Source: a virus
Length of the DNA stretch: 38,949 bases
UHGV virus genome: UHGV-0097970
Direction: 5' to 3' (one strand)
The notes under the pieces are model-generated. The model was not told where the DNA came from. It saw only the letters and a list, made by a program, of their open reading frames with translations, and did no database searches. Position 1 is the first letter of the stretch. Each line of letters opens with the position of its first letter. A program made the position numbers and the translations under genes. Positions 539 through 31,198 of the stretch are shown piece after piece.

Positions 539-838
539 CTACGATGCAAGAATCCATACCAATAAGCATCCGATAATTGGGAAAGAAAAATCCAACAAAC
601 TTCCCACATCCCACACGCGTGGATCAAAACCTCCCCACCACGGCATGTTGACACGTTTCCCTTTCCCAAACTTTTCTATCCAGCGATATTCTGCCTGGGT
701 GTGTTCACGCGCAATGAAGAACGTACAACCGGCTATCGCACCGTAAGCCCAGTTTCCGGTAAAAATACCAACCAGTACCTGAGCCGCAAAAGCGCAAAGC
801 GAGTGAAGAAATGGAGTGACATCAATGCTCTTAATCAT
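539..838 (-). CDS. Small predicted membrane protein, hypothetical; possible moron
   Basis: 99-aa ORF with hydrophobic segments ([44 protein letters not shown]); its ATG overlaps the tailspike stop (ATGA at 835-838), implying co-transcription; sits between tailspike and attL. Confidence 0.5.
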
Positions 839-2892
839 GAAACTTCCCCGTTGGTTGAAAATATGGCTCCTCCAACTCCAAGTGTATTTCGTGTTGTGCT
901 CAACCTAAGAGGGCTGGAGTCAGAATTAGAATATCCTGTAGCAGAAATAAAAGATCCTCCACTAATAGTCAACTGCGGAACATCGGCTATATCTGAATAA
1001 GTTCTGTCAGCAACAGTATTATTTATAGCCACATATGATCCAAAAAAACTTCTTATTGTTTGGTTTTTAACTTTACTTCCTTCAATGGTTATCCTACTAC
1101 CACAGTCGGCAATAAATCCTGAATCTGCATCCAGCGTTGCATTCATAAAAGAAGCTTCAGATCTCTCTACATCAATCCATCTAATATCTTTTGTGGGATT
1201 TGCACCAAATACATGACAAATATTAGAGTTAAACCTTACACCATCTTGGAGGTGCATTAATTTTTTTATATCTGTACCCCATAGCCTTGGAAAATTAACA
1301 GATGCTCCTGCATGGCAATCAAATCCCAGCTCAGCCCCTGAGATATCTACAGCCTTTCCTGAAATAACAGCACCAGTGTCTGCATTAACGGCTGTTCCAC
1401 AATTGCGCATATCATTACCAGCAACATCAACACAACCCGCACCATCAATACGCACACCAAGTGCACATCCATAAAAACCTTTTTCAATATTTGGTTCAAG
1501 GACTTTACCACTTGTTTCTGCATCACTTTCTTCAACGTCATGTCGTCTTGCATCAACATATGCTGTATGAATGCAGGTTAATCCACGATATGAGCAATGT
1601 ATAGTTTTATGGTCGCGTATATTAACATTTGAACCATCTCTTACATTCCATCCTATATAACAATAGCTTGCACTTGACCCCTGAAAATCTGCTTTAACAT
1701 TATAAATACAATTAACTGACGCAACCGTACTCTCTGTGCACCGTTCAAACTTGCTTACAGGCATTGATGCCTTGACATTATTTACCAGTTGCAGGGAAGA
1801 GTATCTGCTATAAGAAAAATCACATACGTAATACCCTTCTGGCATATATGCAGCAACACTTTCCTCATCAGGAGCACATCCGGTATGATATGCACTAATT
1901 TTTGCACCAAAGCTACCATGAATTCCAACGTAGAACTTTCGAGCACCTGAATACGGATAGAAATTAAGTTCAGCTTTTTGAGTTACAATAAATGCACAAA
2001 CATCGCTATCATCTCTATTTTCTTCAATCTGAATAGCAAATACAGGACTTTTTGCTGCATCGCAAATGTAAAATAAATATTTGTATTCGTAATACGTCCT
2101 AACAGTTTTAGTAAACAAACTGGTATCAGAGAAAACCACTGAGTCTTCTGATATTATTTTAATCCATGATAAGTCACATCCTGCTGAAATTTCTATTTGC
2201 TCATTGAGCACAAAACCGGAAAGAATTTTAATTATGCAAAAATCAATGCCATTTTTCCATAGTGGACGCAGTGCAACAGCTGAGTTTAGAGCATCACTAA
2301 TAGATTTAAAATTACCATATTCCCCAACTGTTATTGTGAATGCATACCTGGAATTAAATACTGCGGCACTCTCTCCAGAGTTAATAGCTGCAGATATCAT
2401 GTCATAATTTGATATAAAATCATTTGGCGTGATTATTTCTGCGTTTTTATTGTGCTGTGTTCTAAGTTTTGAATTTACATGAACACTTTTAACTGCAATA
2501 CGGGAGTCGTCAACAAGTATTTCATTACCCTCTGTTGCTAACTCTTGTCTTAACTGATCCGGGTCATACTTCAGCACATTCGGAAAATAGAACTGCTGTG
2601 CACCATACGCATCATAAACAGCCATAGAATGGCCTTGCACAGTTACGAACTTGGCAATCTGTCCGTTATATACCGGGTAACCAGCAGTGTTAATGATGAT
2701 TGGTTGAGAAACAGGAACGTGAGAGCCGTCTTCGTTCTCCACATAAACCTGAATCTGGTTTTCAGGATTTACCGGGTCAGTGTCAATTTTACCGATATAA
2801 ATTTTGCCATTAGCTACGGCTTTAAAAGAACGCGCCATAGTGAAGAGTTGCGAAGGCATTGATACGATCACATTGGCTGTAATGTCTGTCAT
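835..2892 (-). CDS. Tailspike protein with P22 gp9-type N-terminal head-binding domain and divergent receptor-binding domain
   Basis: N-terminal ~110 aa ([13 protein letters not shown]...KYDPDQ) closely matches the P22 tailspike head-binding domain from memory; remaining ~570 aa are unrelated to P22 gp9 and AT-rich. Confidence 0.9.
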
Positions 2893-3024
2893 TTAATTTG
2901 CTCCAGATACAAGGAATGGCCGCAGCATGGCTACGGTTGGAATTTGTTACATACCTAAACGGTACGATTGTTGATTTGTACAGTGGGTTTTACGATGCCA
3001 TTCCACCCATTTGGTGAGGCATTG

Positions 3025-3282
3025 ATGATGTACAGCAAATACGATGAGGCGCAGTTCCACTTGAGGCTTACACACGAGTTGCACGCTAAGATTAAGCAGC
3101 GTGCAAAAATGAATAACAGGTCTATCAATTCCGAAATTGTGGCTACGATGGAAGAATCACTCTCCAAACCATCACCTGTAAGCGGGTATCGTGATGAAGA
3201 AGAAAGGCTGGCCTCATTAATCTCGGAACGAGTAAAAGAAGTTGCGGCTGAAATTCTAAGGAAAGAAAAAACCCGCGATTAA
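3025..3282 (+). CDS. mnt: Mnt-like ribbon-helix-helix repressor
   Basis: SKPSPVSGYRDEEERLA matches P22 Mnt SKPSPVTGYRNDAERLA; RHH N-terminus FHLRLTHELHAKIKQRAKMNNRSINSEIV; start chosen at internal ATG after GGTGAGG RBS. Confidence 0.8.
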   Translation: MMYSKYDEAQFHLRLTHELHAKIKQRAKMNNRSINSEIVATMEESLSKPSPVSGYRDEEERLASLISERVKEVAAEILRKEKTRD

Positions 3283-3297
3283 GCGGGTTTAGTTTTC
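3265..3297. terminator. Bidirectional intrinsic terminator between convergent mnt and antirepressor genes
   Basis: aaaaaaCCCGCgattaaGCGGGtttagtttt: GC stem flanked by A-run and T-run, so U-tract on either strand. Confidence 0.6.
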
Positions 3298-3308
3298 ATT
3301 ATAAAATG

Positions 3309-4037
3309 TTACGCCACATTTGAGCCATGTAGTAGGTGTTGTAGTGCTTTAACGCCTTCAGAATTGTAACGGAACGCCTCTACCTGTTTGCTGGAATGCG
3401 CCGATTTATCCAGGAAGAACTTCCCGTACTGCTCAGTTTTGAGGTTGTTTGCGTTAGCAATGCGACCAATCTTGTTGGCCGTTACTCCAAGCTGCTCTGC
3501 AACCTCCCCTGCTGAGTAGTAATGCTCTTCTATTGCCGGAAGAGGTATTGCATTAAAACCAACGAGCGGGTTGATTATACTTGCTGCCGCTGTCTGCTTT
3601 GCCTCAGGCGCAAGATTTGGCATCAGATCGAACAGATTGGTAACAGCTTCAACCGTCATTTTCAATGTTCGCGCTTGACGATACTCAACAAGTCCACTCG
3701 CTGATTTACCGCTTTTAATGTGCGCTTCTTGCATACTTTCAAGTTGGTCTACCAGTGAGCGGCGAACGGCTTTTGACTCGCGAGCGGCAACTCGCAATGC
3801 TTGCTTGATTGACATCTCAATGATAACCATCGAAGTTTTGTTCGCTTTTTGCACTACACTTTTTGTGTAGTGCTCTCCATCCAATTCATCTTCAATTTTC
3901 TCGATGAATTTGTTATTACGAACCTCCGGCTCACCGCACTGTCTACGAGCCTGATTTACCATCTCAAGAAGGCGCTGGCTGTCAATGGTTTTATCCGTGA
4001 CAACGGATCCGATGTTTGCTACATTCTTAAAAGTCAT
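3309..4037 (-). CDS. Putative antirepressor-module / phage regulatory protein
   Basis: 242-aa ORF downstream of ant; AAGGAA RBS 7 nt before MTFKNVANIG; C-terminal region looks like a DNA-binding segment (SAGEVAEQLGVTANKIGRIANANNL). Family assignment from memory only. Confidence 0.45.
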   Translation of the reverse strand: MTFKNVANIGSVVTDKTIDSQRLLEMVNQARRQCGEPEVRNNKFIEKIEDELDGEHYTKSVVQKANKTSMVIIEMSIKQALRVAARESKAVRRSLVDQLESMQEAHIKSGKSASGLVEYRQARTLKMTVEAVTNLFDLMPNLAPEAKQTAAASIINPLVGFNAIPLPAIEEHYYSAGEVAEQLGVTANKIGRIANANNLKTEQYGKFFLDKSAHSSKQVEAFRYNSEGVKALQHLLHGSNVA

Positions 4038-4075
4038 TAGGCATTCCTTATGTGGTAGTAAGGGTGTGACATAGG

Positions 4076-4106
4076 CCGCCAGCAGCACACTGGCGGTTTT
4101 CTTTTT
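4076..4106 (+). terminator. Intrinsic terminator on + strand, antisense to the ant operon
   Basis: CCGCCAG-cagcaca-CTGGCGG followed by ttttcttttt on the + strand. Confidence 0.5.
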
Positions 4107-4125
4107 GCGCCGTCCGGCGCACCAA

Positions 4126-4752
4126 TCAATGAATCCATTCCTCGCCGCGCAGTTTTGCCAGCATTGGCTGAGCGTTCTTTACGACAAAATTGTTGGTATC
4201 AAGATTCTTCATTTCACGAAGAAGTGATTTCTTGGTTTCTTCTGACATATAGCGAGTCTCATATGCGATATCGTAAATCCTTCCTGAAAGCTCAGAACAA
4301 ATTTGCTTCATTCCTGGGTAGATGTGTTTGCACATTTGTTGACTCTTCTCCATCCACAATTGTAAGTAGCAGAGATTAACCAGTTCTTCGTCAGTAAACT
4401 GTTTTGCAATCGGTGAGCATTCTGCCTGCCGATCCAAAATATCCAGCACCCAGCGGCGGAACTCTTTGGCTACCGGAGTGCGAGCAAACATCGCGATTAG
4501 GTGGGCACCGCGTAGTGAGAAAACTCGCACTTTTTTGCGATAATTTCCTGAGGTACTCACTTCGAGTACCTGAGTCATTCCAGCGCTAAACTCATCGCTA
4601 TACTTGTTATAAATCATTGTTACTGCACGACTATTTGCGTATTTAAGTGCAGATGCAATATTAGATGATGTAAACCAAACACCATGCATATCACGGGTGG
4701 GCACCAACTCAACTCCGTGGAAGTTGTATTCTGATTTTGCTACAATATTCAT
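4126..4752 (-). CDS. ant: Antirepressor Ant (Bro-N domain)
   Basis: MNIVAKSEYNFHGVELVPTRDMHGVWFTSSNIASAL...FSLRGAHLIAMFARTPVAKEFRRWVLDIL is a Bro-N-type antirepressor N-terminus; start set at internal ATG preceded by GGAAA; follows arc. Confidence 0.8.
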   Translation of the reverse strand: MNIVAKSEYNFHGVELVPTRDMHGVWFTSSNIASALKYANSRAVTMIYNKYSDEFSAGMTQVLEVSTSGNYRKKVRVFSLRGAHLIAMFARTPVAKEFRRWVLDILDRQAECSPIAKQFTDEELVNLCYLQLWMEKSQQMCKHIYPGMKQICSELSGRIYDIAYETRYMSEETKKSLLREMKNLDTNNFVVKNAQPMLAKLRGEEWIH

Positions 4753-4825
4753 GTTAGTTTCCTTGCATACGGTTACTGACATAGAGGCCCGGTTTGTGTT
4801 CGCGCACTGCCGGGCTTCACTATTT
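4743..4825 (+). ncRNA. Candidate sar-like antisense RNA covering ant RBS/start and arc 3' end
   Basis: Extended -10 TGcTACAAT at 4728-4736 (+) inside the ant start region; + strand hairpin GCCCGG...CCGGGC (4777-4805) followed by T-rich tract over the arc stop. Confidence 0.3.
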
Positions 4826-4999
4826 TTATTGGATGACAACATCGCCCTTTGCCTCAAGTTTCATCAATAACTCCATTCGATAAGCTATCTCTGCCTGAAT
4901 TGACCTATGGCATCTTTTTGCTGATTCGCGGATATGTGAATCAACCTTTTCTGTAAAACGAACCTGACGCGGCTTGATGGAAGATATCTTTTCAGTCAT
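4826..4999 (-). CDS. arc: Arc-like ribbon-helix-helix repressor (57 aa, below ORF-track cutoff)
   Basis: My translation: MTEKISSIKPRQVRFTEKVDSHIRESAKRCHRSIQAEIAYRMELLMKLEAKGDVVIQ; AGGAG RBS 6 nt upstream; RHH pattern as in P22 Arc; directly upstream of ant. Confidence 0.7.
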   Translation of the reverse strand: MTEKISSIKPRQVRFTEKVDSHIRESAKRCHRSIQAEIAYRMELLMKLEAKGDVVIQ

Positions 5000-5041
5000 T
5001 ATGCACTCCTGTTTTTAAAAAACTCATAATCTCACTTTTTG

Positions 5042-5077
5042 TAGTTTGATTATTCACTCACACTCAGTATGAGTCAA
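5042..5077 (-). promoter_or_regulatory. Pant-like promoter for arc-ant with overlapping inverted repeat
   Basis: Minus strand -35 TTGACT (comp. 5072-5077), 17-bp spacer, -10 AATAAT (comp. 5049-5054); ACTCA-N3-TGAGT inverted repeat at 5062-5074 overlaps the -35. Confidence 0.5.
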
Positions 5078-5098
5078 TGAATTTTTTATGGTGAACTA

Positions 5099-5740
5099 AT
5101 GAATTTTGACGATCAATTCCCATCAAGAGTATCTCTGGCAAGACAGTCCAGGGGTATGACGCAGGCGCAGTTGTCAAAATTAGCTGGTGTTGTTCAACGT
5201 CAAATAGCTGCATACGAGGGTGGTGAGGCTAAACCACGGCTTCGGGTATTGCAGGCATTAGCCAACGCATTAGGTACTACGGCTGAGTGGTTAGCTCTAG
5301 GTGAAGGTCAGGGTCCGGGAACAAAAAACGTCATGCCTGACGTTCTGGTAAAGCAAATACCAATCCTCAAACTAGATGAAGTTATGCATTACCTAAACAC
5401 AGGTGAACATTCATCGTCTAGATTTCATCCGGCAATATACAATGTTGGTGACTCTGCATTTGCATTGACTATTGAAGGTGAAGCTATGACTACAAGTTCA
5501 GGTATTAGCTTTCCCAGAGGATCAGTTGTCACGTTCAGCCCTCTAGTAAAAGCTAAAAGCAAAGATTATGTAATAGCATCATTGGATAAAGAGCAAATAT
5601 TGAGCTTCAAGCAGGTTTACATTGGTGAAATAGAGACAAACTTAGTATCCCTAAACCCAATGTATCCTAATATTCTTGTTAGAAATGAAGATGTTAGTAT
5701 TTTGGCAACCGCAGTTTACCTTGAAATCCCGTTGCTTTGA
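5099..5740 (+). CDS. CI/LexA-family repressor (HTH_XRE + S24 fold) with Ala at the nucleophile position
   Basis: N-terminal HTH (GMTQAQLSKLAGVVQRQIAAYEGGEAKP); C-terminal region aligns by eye to lambda CI S24 domain (DSAFALTIEGEAM vs DSAFWLEVEGNSM; LVSLNPMYPNI vs LQPLNPQYPMI); the GxSM serine is Ala. Confidence 0.8.
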   Translation: MNFDDQFPSRVSLARQSRGMTQAQLSKLAGVVQRQIAAYEGGEAKPRLRVLQALANALGTTAEWLALGEGQGPGTKNVMPDVLVKQIPILKLDEVMHYLNTGEHSSSRFHPAIYNVGDSAFALTIEGEAMTTSSGISFPRGSVVTFSPLVKAKSKDYVIASLDKEQILSFKQVYIGEIETNLVSLNPMYPNILVRNEDVSILATAVYLEIPLL

Positions 5741-5804
5741 TATCCTTTAGGAAGCGACACATTATCATCCGGTGTTCTGCTCAAAACTAAGGAGTGGCTA
5801 CTCA

Positions 5805-6443
5805 ATGAAAAAAATAGATATATATAGCGATACATCAGCCTATGTCATAGGCTCATTGGGTTTTTTAATTTTTTTTGTTTGGCAGTACCAGTCACTATCT
5901 CCAGGATGGCGATTTTTGGGGATGTCTTTGATATCACTTGGTGCAGGAATAGCAACGCAGGTGTTGATGTATCTCTTTAATGGATGGATCTCAAAAAGAG
6001 TTGAGAAAAAAAGAGCTACTTCAATATGTAGAAGCCTAGCTATTCCAGAAGACTCTACAGATCAGGATGATATTGCAAAATGTTGGCGGTATATGATTGC
6101 AAGATACTCAAATGAGTTACTGGCAAACAGACTGTCCGACTTAATCGGGATCGTAGTTACCTCTGTTGGAACAATCATCAGTATAGGGATATCAATTTGG
6201 TATGTCGGGATGATTGTCTATTTTGTTTGGAATAGAGACTTCAATGAACCTTCCATTCTTTTTATACCTTTATTTTTCAGGGTATTAGCATTCATATGTG
6301 AGTTATTGCTCTCTTTTTTCTGCAATGTTTTGTTCAACAGATACCCAGGTGAAGCAAGAAAGTTTAATAAAAACTATGATGAGTTAAGGAGAACAGATCC
6401 TTTTCTATCAAGCAAAGAGTTCCGCGATTCCATTCGCAATTAA
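5805..6443 (+). CDS. Multi-pass inner-membrane protein, hypothetical (SieA position)
   Basis: Four or more hydrophobic helices; very AT-rich relative to neighbours; TAAGGAG RBS before ATG at 5805 (track ORF starts 5772); lies between gp16 and immI module like P22 sieA; no sequence similarity recognised. Confidence 0.6.
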   Translation: MKKIDIYSDTSAYVIGSLGFLIFFVWQYQSLSPGWRFLGMSLISLGAGIATQVLMYLFNGWISKRVEKKRATSICRSLAIPEDSTDQDDIAKCWRYMIARYSNELLANRLSDLIGIVVTSVGTIISIGISIWYVGMIVYFVWNRDFNEPSILFIPLFFRVLAFICELLLSFFCNVLFNRYPGEARKFNKNYDELRRTDPFLSSKEFRDSIRN

Positions 6444-6464
6444 CAACATCCATGACATCAACCC

Positions 6465-8306
6465 TTAGCGATCAGTTGCATCATTGGCAAGTATTGGTCT
6501 GATGGCATTTGCGGCGTTATTCAGCGCTCTTTCATAGGCTGGCGTTCCAGCTTTAGTGTTTGCCAGACGTAAGAGCGCATTCCTTGCTGCTTTGGACTCA
6601 TACAAGCGCATCATTGCACCAAAACCAGCCTCAAGCCCCATTGATACGCCAAGAGTCGCAGTTGCGCCAATCGTCCTTATCCTGTTGGCTTGCGATTGCC
6701 CCGTCTGAGTTACTACATTTGCGGTGTCTGACCTTGCTGTTTGCTGTAGAACTTCATTAAGAGCATCAAGTTCTTTCATGTGCTTTCCAGAAAAAATAGT
6801 GTTGTAAATTTCACCGCCTGACTGAGATTTCAGCTTATTAACTTCAGTGATGAACTTGGCTGGAGAGTCACCGGCCTTTTCCGCTATTTTGCTGACGTAA
6901 GCTGCACGCATAGCATCTTTCCCTTTATCATCCAGTGCGCTCCAGATTCGTTTCACGTCAGATGGTTTTCTGCTTAATACAACGGTATTTATAAGTTCAG
7001 GACTGGCTTCACTGCTTGCCTTGTTGAGTTTGTTAGCAATGTTTTTATTAAGCACCTTATTATAAACGTTTGCATAATCGGAATTTGCTTTAAGGTATTT
7101 TGCTGCGTCTGATGCACCGAGGTTTTTAGCAACTGCGTTACGAAGGTCTTTTGACATTGCATTCTCTACCATATTGGTAGCTGCTTTTGCCTGGTTGGGG
7201 AAGACCATAGCATCTCCCTGAACATTAGATCTAAATGCTGTTCTGTGCTGACGCAAGAGATCAAACGTAACATCCAAATCAGTTGCAGGGTTTGCTAATT
7301 CTTCACGTAGGTTACGCAAGGATGTAAGCAGGCTTTGATTGGCTGAAGTCCCAAGCCGTTCCTGTCTTGCGATCGCTGTATTCAGAGCATTCATGGTATT
7401 TGTGGTATCAACTGCGGCATTACCCATTTTATTGGTGACGTCATTGATAACAGCGCCAGCGGCATCCTTCCGCCCCCTTAACGTGGTGGTCAGAGATTTC
7501 ACCACATCATCAGGGTTGTACTCACCAAAACGGTCAAAATAATTTCTTACCAGCTTACTACGCGTTGCATATTGCTCCGCTCTCTTTGAGCCTGTCCCGA
7601 GCAAAGCCCCCTCGGCATCCTGAGTAAGGCCGCGAGTGAAAGCATTTTTCGGCGGGATAACATCAGATGTCATTGGTGTCACTCCCATCGATTCTGATGT
7701 GGCAATTTTCTTCGCCACTTCTGGCGCAATATCACCTTTTATAGCCGTTATTCCACGCCCTATTCCCTTTGCTGCTGCGGAAAGAACCCCCTGAGCGGCA
7801 AGGTTAACTCCGGCATTTTTGGCTGCATTTTGTGCGAAATCGCCTTTCTGGTTTGCGGCTTCTGCCAGTGATCCAATAGCCATGCTTCCTGCCGTTCCAA
7901 CTCCTGGAACTAAATACCCGCCAATTGTTTCTCCAGCTTGCGCATAAGGGTCTGTCGGTCGATCGACAGGGCGATAAACATCATCCAAAACCTTGGGGCC
8001 ACCAAGCCCCTGGCTGATTGCATTAATCAGACTTGCGCCACCCTGCAATACGTCAAATGGTATGTTTACCAGACCACGACCAGCCTGCTCTGCAATTTGC
8101 CCTGCACTTTGACCACCTGTGAGCCAATCGCCAGCTTTTTGCATCAATGATGGTTCTTCACGTGCTGGTTCATTATTGGCCTGATTAACTGTTTGTTGCT
8201 GAACAGCCTGACCAGCAAAATACTCATCAATGGCGGTGCCAATATCTTCCGTGCTCGTACCATCAGGGAAGGTAAATGTCTTACCGTTTGCAGTTACTTT
8301 CATCAT
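6465..8306 (-). CDS. Ejection protein, P22 gp16-like
   Basis: [33 protein letters not shown] resembles P22 gp16 N-terminus; size and synteny (last of 7-20-16). Confidence 0.8.
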
Positions 8307-30490: not shown

Positions 30491-31198
30491 ATGAAAACAT
30501 TCGCAGAAAGACTAAATGCAGCCATGAGCTCAGCTGGGGTATCACAATCACAGCTTGCTGACATGGTTGGAATATCTCAGCCAGCCATACAGAAGATGTC
30601 GTCCGGTAAAACAAACGGATCTCGCAAGATGGTTGAATTAGCCAATGCTTTAAAAGTGCGCCCTGAATGGCTTAGTTCTGGTATTGGTGAAATGAGGGAT
30701 GGTGCACATGAAGAACCATCCAATGTCCGTGAGTCATCTTTAAAAGCTGTGGTATGGGAAGACATTAAAAGAAACGATGACGAGTTTGTTGCGTTGCCTC
30801 TTCTTAACGTTTCGCTTTCAGCGGGAAGCGGTAGCTGCGAGCTAGAGGAATCATCGGAGTTCTCTTTGGTTTTCAGAAAGCACTATCTGAAAAAGATGGG
30901 AGTATCTGAAAGATCAGCCAAGCTAGTTAGGGTTGTAGGGCAAAGCATGGAACCAACGCTTCACGATGGCGATGTTGTTGGTGTTAACACGCAAGATACC
31001 ACCATCAGAGATGGTAAAACCTACGCTATTTGCCAGTCTGATTTGTTACGAGTAAAAACATTAATCGCCACCCCTACATCGGTGATAATCAGATCAATAA
31101 ATCGCGAAGAGTACCCGGATGAAGTAATGGATAGAGATGAATTTCATGAAACCGTAAGGATTATTGGCAGAGTATTCTGGTCGTCTCATAGTTGGTAA
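30491..31198 (+). CDS. cI: CI-type prophage repressor (HTH + active-looking S24 peptidase)
   Basis: HTH LSQSQLADMVGISQPAIQKM; C-terminal GQSMEPT (Ser present) and LRVKTL Lys; start at MKTFAERL since upstream ATG overlaps the operators. Confidence 0.9.
   Translation: MKTFAERLNAAMSSAGVSQSQLADMVGISQPAIQKMSSGKTNGSRKMVELANALKVRPEWLSSGIGEMRDGAHEEPSNVRESSLKAVVWEDIKRNDDEFVALPLLNVSLSAGSGSCELEESSEFSLVFRKHYLKKMGVSERSAKLVRVVGQSMEPTLHDGDVVGVNTQDTTIRDGKTYAICQSDLLRVKTLIATPTSVIIRSINREEYPDEVMDRDEFHETVRIIGRVFWSSHSW

Follow-up and report, generated by a model that had tools for sequence, protein, structure and literature searches.

A CI-like protein with alanine at the S24 nucleophile position in the mnt slot of a P22-like Escherichia coli prophage or phage

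Organization of the Immunity-I Region

The 38,949-nucleotide window (the whole stretch of UHGV virus genome UHGV-0097970 that was analysed) is a P22-like (Lederbergvirus) Escherichia coli prophage or phage whose late genes lie on the minus strand. Between the homologs of gene 16 (6465–8306, minus strand) and the tailspike gene 9 (835–2892, minus strand), it carries the two adjacent plus strand genes considered here. The first, at 5099–5740, encodes a repressor resembling lambda CI, which we call the CI-like protein. The second, at 5805–6443, encodes the superinfection exclusion membrane protein SieA. Both open reading frames had been called in an initial annotation made from the sequence alone, and both are confirmed in position and strand. 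At position 5042, where that annotation began the feature, there is nothing except the approximate predicted start point of a leftward promoter.

The annotated order in P22, read in the same orientation, is 9, ant, sar, arc, the sites Omnt, Oarc, Pant and Pmnt, then mnt, orf59a, Tmnt, PsieA, sieA and 16. Since the order in the window runs parallel to this, the 5099–6443 pair occupies the mnt–sieA stretch of P22, and the CI-like gene has the slot and orientation of mnt. The region is the immunity-I (immI) region, or "ant moron", of an HS1-type P22-like E. coli prophage. Positions 4800–6500 match HS1, the P22-like prophage of E. coli strain HS, at 99.5% identity, and positions 4800–5794 match phage JEP4 at 98.9%. 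In strain HS, the antirepressor 2 homolog (locus L002, 3437–5238) is split by an IS3-family element. In the window that gene is intact (3309–4037), and therefore the window is not the HS copy itself.

The CI-like Protein Has Alanine at the Nucleophile Position

The CI-like protein is 213 residues long, with an N-terminal XRE-type helix-turn-helix (HTH) domain and a C-terminal domain of the Peptidase_S24 fold. The initial annotation had described a CI-like fold with alanine at the S24 nucleophile, and Pfam, phmmer and an AlphaFold2 (AF2) model compared by Foldseek all agree with it. The Pfam matches are HTH_3 at E 9e-13 and Peptidase_S24 (PF00717) at E 1.3e-12, both exceeding the gathering scores. 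When phmmer aligns the protein to the lambda repressor chains in the PDB, its LTIEGEAMT is paired with LEVEGNSMT of lambda, and Ala129 falls on the Ser149 nucleophile of lambda CI. In place of the serine motif G-x-S-M the protein has GEAM, in which the G-x-x-M context is kept. The alanine codon, GCT at 5483–5485, is one transversion away from the TCN codons of the relatives that bear serine. The alanine is real and not a sequencing error, since phage JEP4 and E. coli HS both encode a protein that is 100% identical. The general base is retained. Lys171 (in SFKQV; AAG at 5609–5611) falls on Lys192 of lambda (in TFKKL); comparison with the K192A entries in the PDB settled which lysine of lambda this is.

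The AF2 model was built on 21 relatives and has a mean predicted local distance difference test score of 82.6. Its top PDB match is the full-length lambda repressor, 3bdn (E 4.6e-10). The isolated lambda C-terminal domain, 1f39, matches at TMt 0.76, and LexA and UmuD' come next. Residues 131–135, after Ala129, are rich in threonine and serine and are modelled at low confidence.

There is no Ala-Gly or Cys-Gly in the inter-domain linker and cleavage-site region. HVQAGMF of lambda aligns there with KLDEVMHY, in a variable segment where the alignment is less certain than that of the active site. The sole Ala-Gly of the protein, A29-G30, is within the HTH domain. Changing the nucleophilic serine to alanine kills self-cleavage in both LexA and lambda CI, and LexA S119A and G85D, both among the PDB entries matched by Foldseek, are non-cleavable mutants. 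Since the serine nucleophile and the Ala-Gly site are both missing, canonical RecA-stimulated self-cleavage should not be expected of the CI-like protein. It is a natural counterpart of the laboratory mutants LexA S119A and lambda S149A. The SOS-insensitivity put forward in the initial annotation is consistent with these two losses, but it does not mark a departure from known systems. P22 Mnt is not known to be an SOS-cleaved repressor, and because Mnt behaves likewise, SOS-insensitivity is the expected property of this slot.

The likeness to lambda CI, P22 C2 and LexA thus extends to the two-domain architecture, the S24 fold, the Gly-x-x-Met context and the lysine general base. The CI-like protein differs from them in having alanine for serine, in lacking Ala-Gly, and in being encoded in a late-region ant moron rather than in immC. 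The canonical immC prophage repressor of the same phage is encoded at 30491–31198 on the plus strand. By translation and alignment it has an intact GQSM serine, the lysine and an Ala-Gly (LSAGSG), and its NCBIfam S24/LexA matches are weak. Databases name the CI-like gene variously as "repressor protein C2", "helix-turn-helix domain-containing protein" and "LexA family transcriptional regulator". NCBIfam makes no curated-family assignment for either the CI-like protein or the membrane protein. PADLOC gives the CI-like protein only generic HTH matches, to the N-terminal regions of RmrA and CapH, with no defence-system assignment, and gives no match for the membrane protein.

Protease Residues across the CI-like Family

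The family was sampled as 47 representatives, comprising the window protein and 46 clusters at 50% identity, the remotest of which may differ in genomic context. The serine nucleophile is kept in 34 representatives and changed in 13 (alanine in 10 and glycine, threonine and aspartate in one each). The lysine is likewise kept in 34 and changed in 13 (arginine in 12, valine in one). Ala-Gly at the site aligned with lambda is kept in one representative and changed in the other 46; P0016, from the first homolog set, also retains it. Many members keep a lambda-like VQA that is followed by serine, alanine, arginine or phenylalanine. The nucleophile flips even among close relatives of the window protein, being alanine at 91% identity, serine at 81%, and alanine again at 76% and 72%. 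Because of this flipping, the position is apparently not under selection, and selection in the family seems to maintain something other than self-cleavage. A repeated and apparently neutral loss of the serine, the lysine and the cleavage site would make the family a natural example of an S24 domain kept for another purpose. At the other end of the protein, the segment GVVQRQIAAYEGGEAKPR (V32, R34–E40, P46 and R47) contains the recognition helix; it shows no variation across an alignment of 21 members and is little changed in the remoter representatives.

One might still suppose that the CI-like protein is inducible by a non-canonical route, through another residue, a host protease, or an antirepressor or ligand acting on the S24-fold domain, so that the ant operon would respond to a signal. 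Retention of the S24-fold domain and its lysine, the conserved length of the domain and the serine kept by 34 of the 47 representatives all speak for this, as do the Thr/Ser-rich residues 131–135 with their low model confidence. We nevertheless regard it as quite unlikely. It is established that the serine to alanine change abolishes cleavage in LexA and lambda CI, nearly all family members have lost the Ala-Gly site, and the alternation of serine (81% identity) with alanine (76% and 72%) among close relatives suggests no selection at the position. The sequence also names no signal or partner for such a route.

Among the best library matches to the CI-like protein there is also a set of long proteins (640–1927 aa) with unusual arrays of 7–11 tandem HTHs closely like its N-terminal domain (P0023–P0025, P0050, P0055 and P0056).

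The Antirepressor Operon and Its Control Region

The operon divergent from the CI-like gene begins, in the position of arc, with a gene for a 57-aa protein (4826–4999, minus strand). This protein matches phrog_10182 at E 2e-37. Its matches to ribbon-helix-helix (RHH) families are weak and below the cut-off (Pfam ParD_like at E 8e-4, Arc at E 0.011), and BLAST finds no similarity between it and P22 Arc. The predicted strand-helix-helix pattern and the position would fit an Arc-like role. Two antirepressor genes follow on the minus strand. The first, ant1 (4126–4752), encodes Bro-N and P22_AR_C domains and matches phrog_245 at E 3e-52. The second, ant2 (3309–4037), matches phrog_1726 at E 7e-101. 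A homolog of the small antisense RNA sar lies at 4753–4830 on the plus strand, as recognised by alignment to the annotated Psar and sar of P22 and by its fold. It starts at the ant1 start codon and lies opposite the ant1 ribosome-binding site, as P22 sar does. Its promoter has an extended −10, TGcTACAAT, at 4738–4746. The predicted RNA folds into two hairpins, with a U-rich run after the second, at −33.3 kcal/mol (z −6.2). An Rfam scan of 2800–6600 returned no sar family and two sub-threshold chance matches (RyhB and SymR).

The intergenic regions of eight homologous modules, which in the window is 5000–5098, can be aligned along their whole length. A promoter scan and this alignment identify a leftward sigma-70-like promoter, TTGACT-17-AATAAT (10/12), at 5049–5077 on the minus strand. 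It is the equivalent of Pant, serving the operon of the 57-aa protein and the antirepressors, and its position is kept in all eight modules. Over its −35 lies a conserved 11-mer, ATGAGTCAATG (5069–5079), which is a candidate operator for the CI-like protein. It is identical in five of the eight regions, and the others differ from it by no more than three bases or by a one-base shift. Searched for across the window, including the sieA promoter and immC, the 11-mer has one exact copy only, and near-matches are at the level of chance. A second conserved element, AAACTCATAATCTCAC (5020–5035), is in the 5' leader of the leftward operon. Since its sequence varies with the type of 57-aa protein and not with the CI-like protein, it is a candidate operator of the 57-aa protein. 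No LexA box occurs in 5000–5098, and counts of LexA boxes across the window are at chance level. Control of the ant operon by LexA in the manner of the Gifsy prophages is ruled out by that absence from 5000–5098.

The Divergent Module in Other Prophages and the Second Mnt Homolog

The module was examined in ten contexts: the window, JEP4, the Providencia phage PSTNGR2lys and the loci L006, L007, L008 and L010–L013. Besides PSTNGR2lys, the types represented are a P22-like prophage of Leclercia, Salmonella prophages in which the module adjoins an integrase, three lambda-like prophages and two others. In all ten, the CI-like gene is divergent from a small gene that is followed by antirepressor genes (Bro-N, P22_AR_N, P22_AR_C and pRha), except that in PSTNGR2lys the two genes downstream of the small gene are unannotated. 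The gap between the CI-like gene and the small gene is 98–101 bp in the eight aligned regions; the annotations give 99 bp for JEP4 and about 90 bp for PSTNGR2lys. The small gene encodes 57 aa in eight contexts, 56 in PSTNGR2lys and 67 in L013. The CI-like/57-aa/Ant module moves between unrelated prophage types.

The initial annotation had also noted that the CI-like gene sits where P22 has mnt, and that the real mnt homolog is elsewhere, at 3025–3282 (plus strand). The P22 annotation and sequence comparison bear this out. The latter gene encodes a full-length Mnt homolog of the Arc family (Pfam Arc, E 3e-15), 45% identical to P22 Mnt (BLASTP, E 2e-23). It lies beside the tailspike gene, about 1.8 kb from the mnt slot, convergent with ant2 and divergent from the start of the tailspike gene, and it might control transcription into that gene. 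JEP4 and the Leclercia prophage have the same gene. E. coli O111 strain 110512 has it too, along with a canonical mnt that is truncated. Mnt as a divergent repressor adjoining Pant is not found in the window; that slot is held by the HTH and S24-fold protein.

This raises the alternative that the Mnt homolog at 3025–3282 is the real repressor of the antirepressor promoter, and that the CI-like protein is an extra immunity or "moron" repressor directed at the operators of other phages or at another target. Phages are known to carry extra repressors that give heteroimmunity, the window has an Mnt homolog at 45% identity, and the search for a palindromic operator of the CI-like protein yielded no clear one. 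On balance we consider this unlikely. The Mnt-like gene is missing from the lambda-like and integrase-adjacent copies of the module, and these still have the triad of CI-like, 57-aa and ant genes. Strain 110512 has both the Mnt-like gene and a canonical mnt beside Pant, and because the canonical mnt adjoins Pant there, the distal copy is not the normal Pant repressor in that strain. Finally, the constancy of the recognition helix and the conservation of the DNA alongside the gene favour a local target for the CI-like protein.

SieA and Its Independence from the CI-like Gene

The membrane protein had been described as an unrecognised, AT-rich protein with multiple transmembrane segments. The composition stands, with a GC content of 0.35–0.40 against 0.45–0.50 in the flanks. 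As for the segments, a 19-residue hydropathy scan finds three clear hydrophobic blocks (37–58, 110–141 and 149–175), and an N-terminal stretch at about 12–27 is weaker and under the cut-off. The protein is, however, readily recognised. The 212-aa product matches phrog_7745, "superinfection exclusion SieA-like", at E 4e-21. It is 28% identical to P22 SieA over 148 residues (BLASTP, E 4e-25; tblastn also aligns them), and the alignment begins at residue 44, which fits an N-terminal extension. Leavitt et al. 2024 (mBio, PMC10883804) describe three SieA sequence types; all share the motif FxRYPxEAxxFNK, and types B and C have one more transmembrane segment at the N terminus. The window protein has this motif as FNRYPGEARKFNK at residues 177–189. 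The gene lies between the homologs of genes 16 and 9, as sieA does in P22-like prophages. The HS1 prophage protein EcHS_A0321 was classed as a type B SieA (PMC10883804), and the window protein is identical to it at 211 of 212 residues, with a single conservative Ile/Leu change. The motif and the position are the same in the two, and both would have the additional N-terminal segment relative to type A. Judged by sequence, the membrane protein is the published HS1-type SieA, and it adds nothing new.

The function of that protein is documented. HS1 sieA with 106 bp of upstream DNA, placed in the Salmonella chromosome, by itself fully excluded P22, L, MG40, MG178 and LP7, and the exclusion was indistinguishable from that by P22 SieA (PMC10883804). 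In the model proposed there, SieA sits in the inner membrane and interferes with the conduit formed by the ejection proteins gp20 and gp16. The promoter scan gives a candidate PsieA, TTGATA-17-CATTAT (9/12), at 5737–5765 on the plus strand. It falls within the 106 bp that sufficed for HS1 sieA, and PsieA of P22 is annotated at the equivalent place.

The two genes had been taken together in the initial annotation as one regulatory or superinfection exclusion cassette. In such a cassette the repressor would control the membrane protein or work with it. There are grounds for the idea. The two genes share a strand and are separated by 64 bp in which no terminator is predicted, and read-through co-transcription is possible. 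Both would be expected to be expressed in the lysogen. P22 also has mnt followed by sieA. The distribution of the genes argues otherwise. A megablast search of 5426 complete E. coli genomes found the CI-like/57-aa side without the other in 24 records, the sieA/gene 16 side without the other in 17, and both in four, three of which are strain HS. The two genes are thus apart in 41 of the 45 records that have either. The change occurs at a sharp joint of 36 bp (5759–5794) that is common to the prophages with the CI-like gene only and to those with sieA only. The joint stretches from the −10 of the candidate PsieA as far as the Shine–Dalgarno sequence of sieA, and it occurs alone, at 100% identity, in nine further E. 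coli genomes. Going by these matches, it looks like a recurrent recombination boundary. Phage JEP4 has the identical CI-like gene without sieA, E. coli O111:H- strain 110512 has the same sieA beside a truncated Arc-family mnt, and none of the other CI-like homolog contexts examined has a sieA-like neighbour. The 11-mer ATGAGTCAATG does not recur near the sieA promoter, PADLOC gives a generic HTH only, and the Salmonella construct excluded phages fully in the absence of the CI-like gene (PMC10883804). We therefore hold the cassette to be very improbable. Because the genes recombine independently around the joint at 5759–5794, and sieA has a promoter-like site of its own, the CI-like gene and sieA are two independent modules that happen to adjoin. 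The SieA family is well characterised, and no paper was found that names the repressor as the regulator of sieA.

Proposed Function of the Region

We consider it probable that sieA blocks superinfection independently, and that the CI-like protein functionally replaces Mnt in silencing the antirepressor genes. SieA would be made from its own promoter at 5737–5765, possibly with some read-through from upstream. By analogy with the HS1 protein, which differs by one residue, it would keep superinfecting P22-like phages from injecting their DNA, probably through interference with the gp20/gp16 conduit.

For the other half of the region, the identities, fold, residue status, synteny and conserved DNA elements lead us to infer DNA binding, repression of ant and non-cleavability. 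The CI-like protein would dimerise through its catalytically dead S24-fold domain and bind within the 99 bp between the divergent genes, at ATGAGTCAATG over the −35 of the leftward promoter or close to it. In a lysogen, it would repress the operon of the 57-aa protein, ant1 and ant2, and the antirepressors could then not inactivate the immC repressor. With no serine nucleophile, no Ala-Gly and no LexA box in the promoter, this lock would not be opened directly by RecA and SOS, which would make it like the lock provided by Mnt. In other respects the P22 circuit would be retained, with an RHH-like small gene at the head of the operon, the antisense RNA sar, and Ant.

Several observations weigh against this account. 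The 11-mer could be conserved merely as a −35 element. No convincing dyad-symmetric operator of 14–18 bp is common to all eight intergenic regions; the window has a perfect CTCA-N3-TGAG (5063–5073), but this is found in only three of the eight. No good plus strand promoter for the CI-like gene passed the promoter scan. By eye, there is TTGATG-17-CATTAT at 4974–5002 (8/12), which is conserved in relatives, but its conservation is uninformative because the site overlaps the 57-aa coding sequence and start codon. About 70% of the family representatives keep both the serine and the lysine, and some members may have retained cleavage at a non-canonical site. The window also keeps a true Mnt homolog at 3025–3282, which could be the real repressor of Pant, acting from a distance.

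Relation to Known Systems

The likeness to P22 immI is broad. The region lies in the same slot, with gene 16 on one side and the tailspike gene on the other. A presumed maintenance repressor is divergent from a small gene with weak RHH matches and from ant, across a control region of 90–99 bp, and sar is homologous. As in P22, sieA is downstream on the strand of the repressor, with a candidate promoter of its own. The differences are that the presumed maintenance repressor is an HTH and S24-fold protein of the CI family where P22 has the RHH protein Mnt, that no similarity to Arc is detectable in the gene heading the ant operon, and that there are two antirepressor genes and an extra Mnt homolog beside the tailspike gene. 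Gifsy prophages provide a second comparison. Lemire et al. in 2011 reportedly found that the Gifsy antirepressor modules are controlled by LexA and that ant is induced by SOS. The window is alike in that its antirepressor operon would be silenced by a repressor dedicated to it and distinct from the main repressor of the prophage. It differs in that the Gifsy repressor is the host LexA, whereas here there is no LexA box, and the repressor is phage-encoded and, to go by its residues, apparently non-cleavable.

Villafane et al. in 2008 drew the HS-1 "ant moron" and commented that it appears to be without arc, and that control of the antirepressor must differ from that in P22 (PMC2629481). The CI-like gene, in the role proposed for it, would answer that point: the logic of P22 is kept, with a CI-family pseudo-protease in place of Mnt. 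Our literature searches for a CI-like repressor in an ant moron or immI region found no description of one and no assigned role. The new part is an immI region with a proposed maintenance repressor of the pseudo-protease CI type, sieA being already known, and its importance is modest.

The finding would matter more if the S24 domain senses a signal. One could imagine CI-like/57-aa/Ant as a widespread, self-contained mobile antirepressor module in which the S24 domain has turned into a non-catalytic sensor or interaction domain, with release of Ant answering some signal other than RecA and SOS. If that were true, induction of the prophage, or cross-induction of co-resident prophages, would follow a non-SOS signal. 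We think this improbable.

Insertion of the Module among Tail Genes

In the three lambda-like prophages (L008, L011 and L012), the module is found within the tail gene clusters, flanked by tape-measure or minor-tail genes on one side and by tail-tip genes on the other. Late operons thus offer another kind of moron site in addition to that of the P22 ant moron. A conserved protein of 183–187 aa with no assigned function accompanies the module in two of these (L011, 3181–3744; L012, 5983–6534). It is 48% identical between the two loci and is encoded on opposite sides of the CI-like gene in them.

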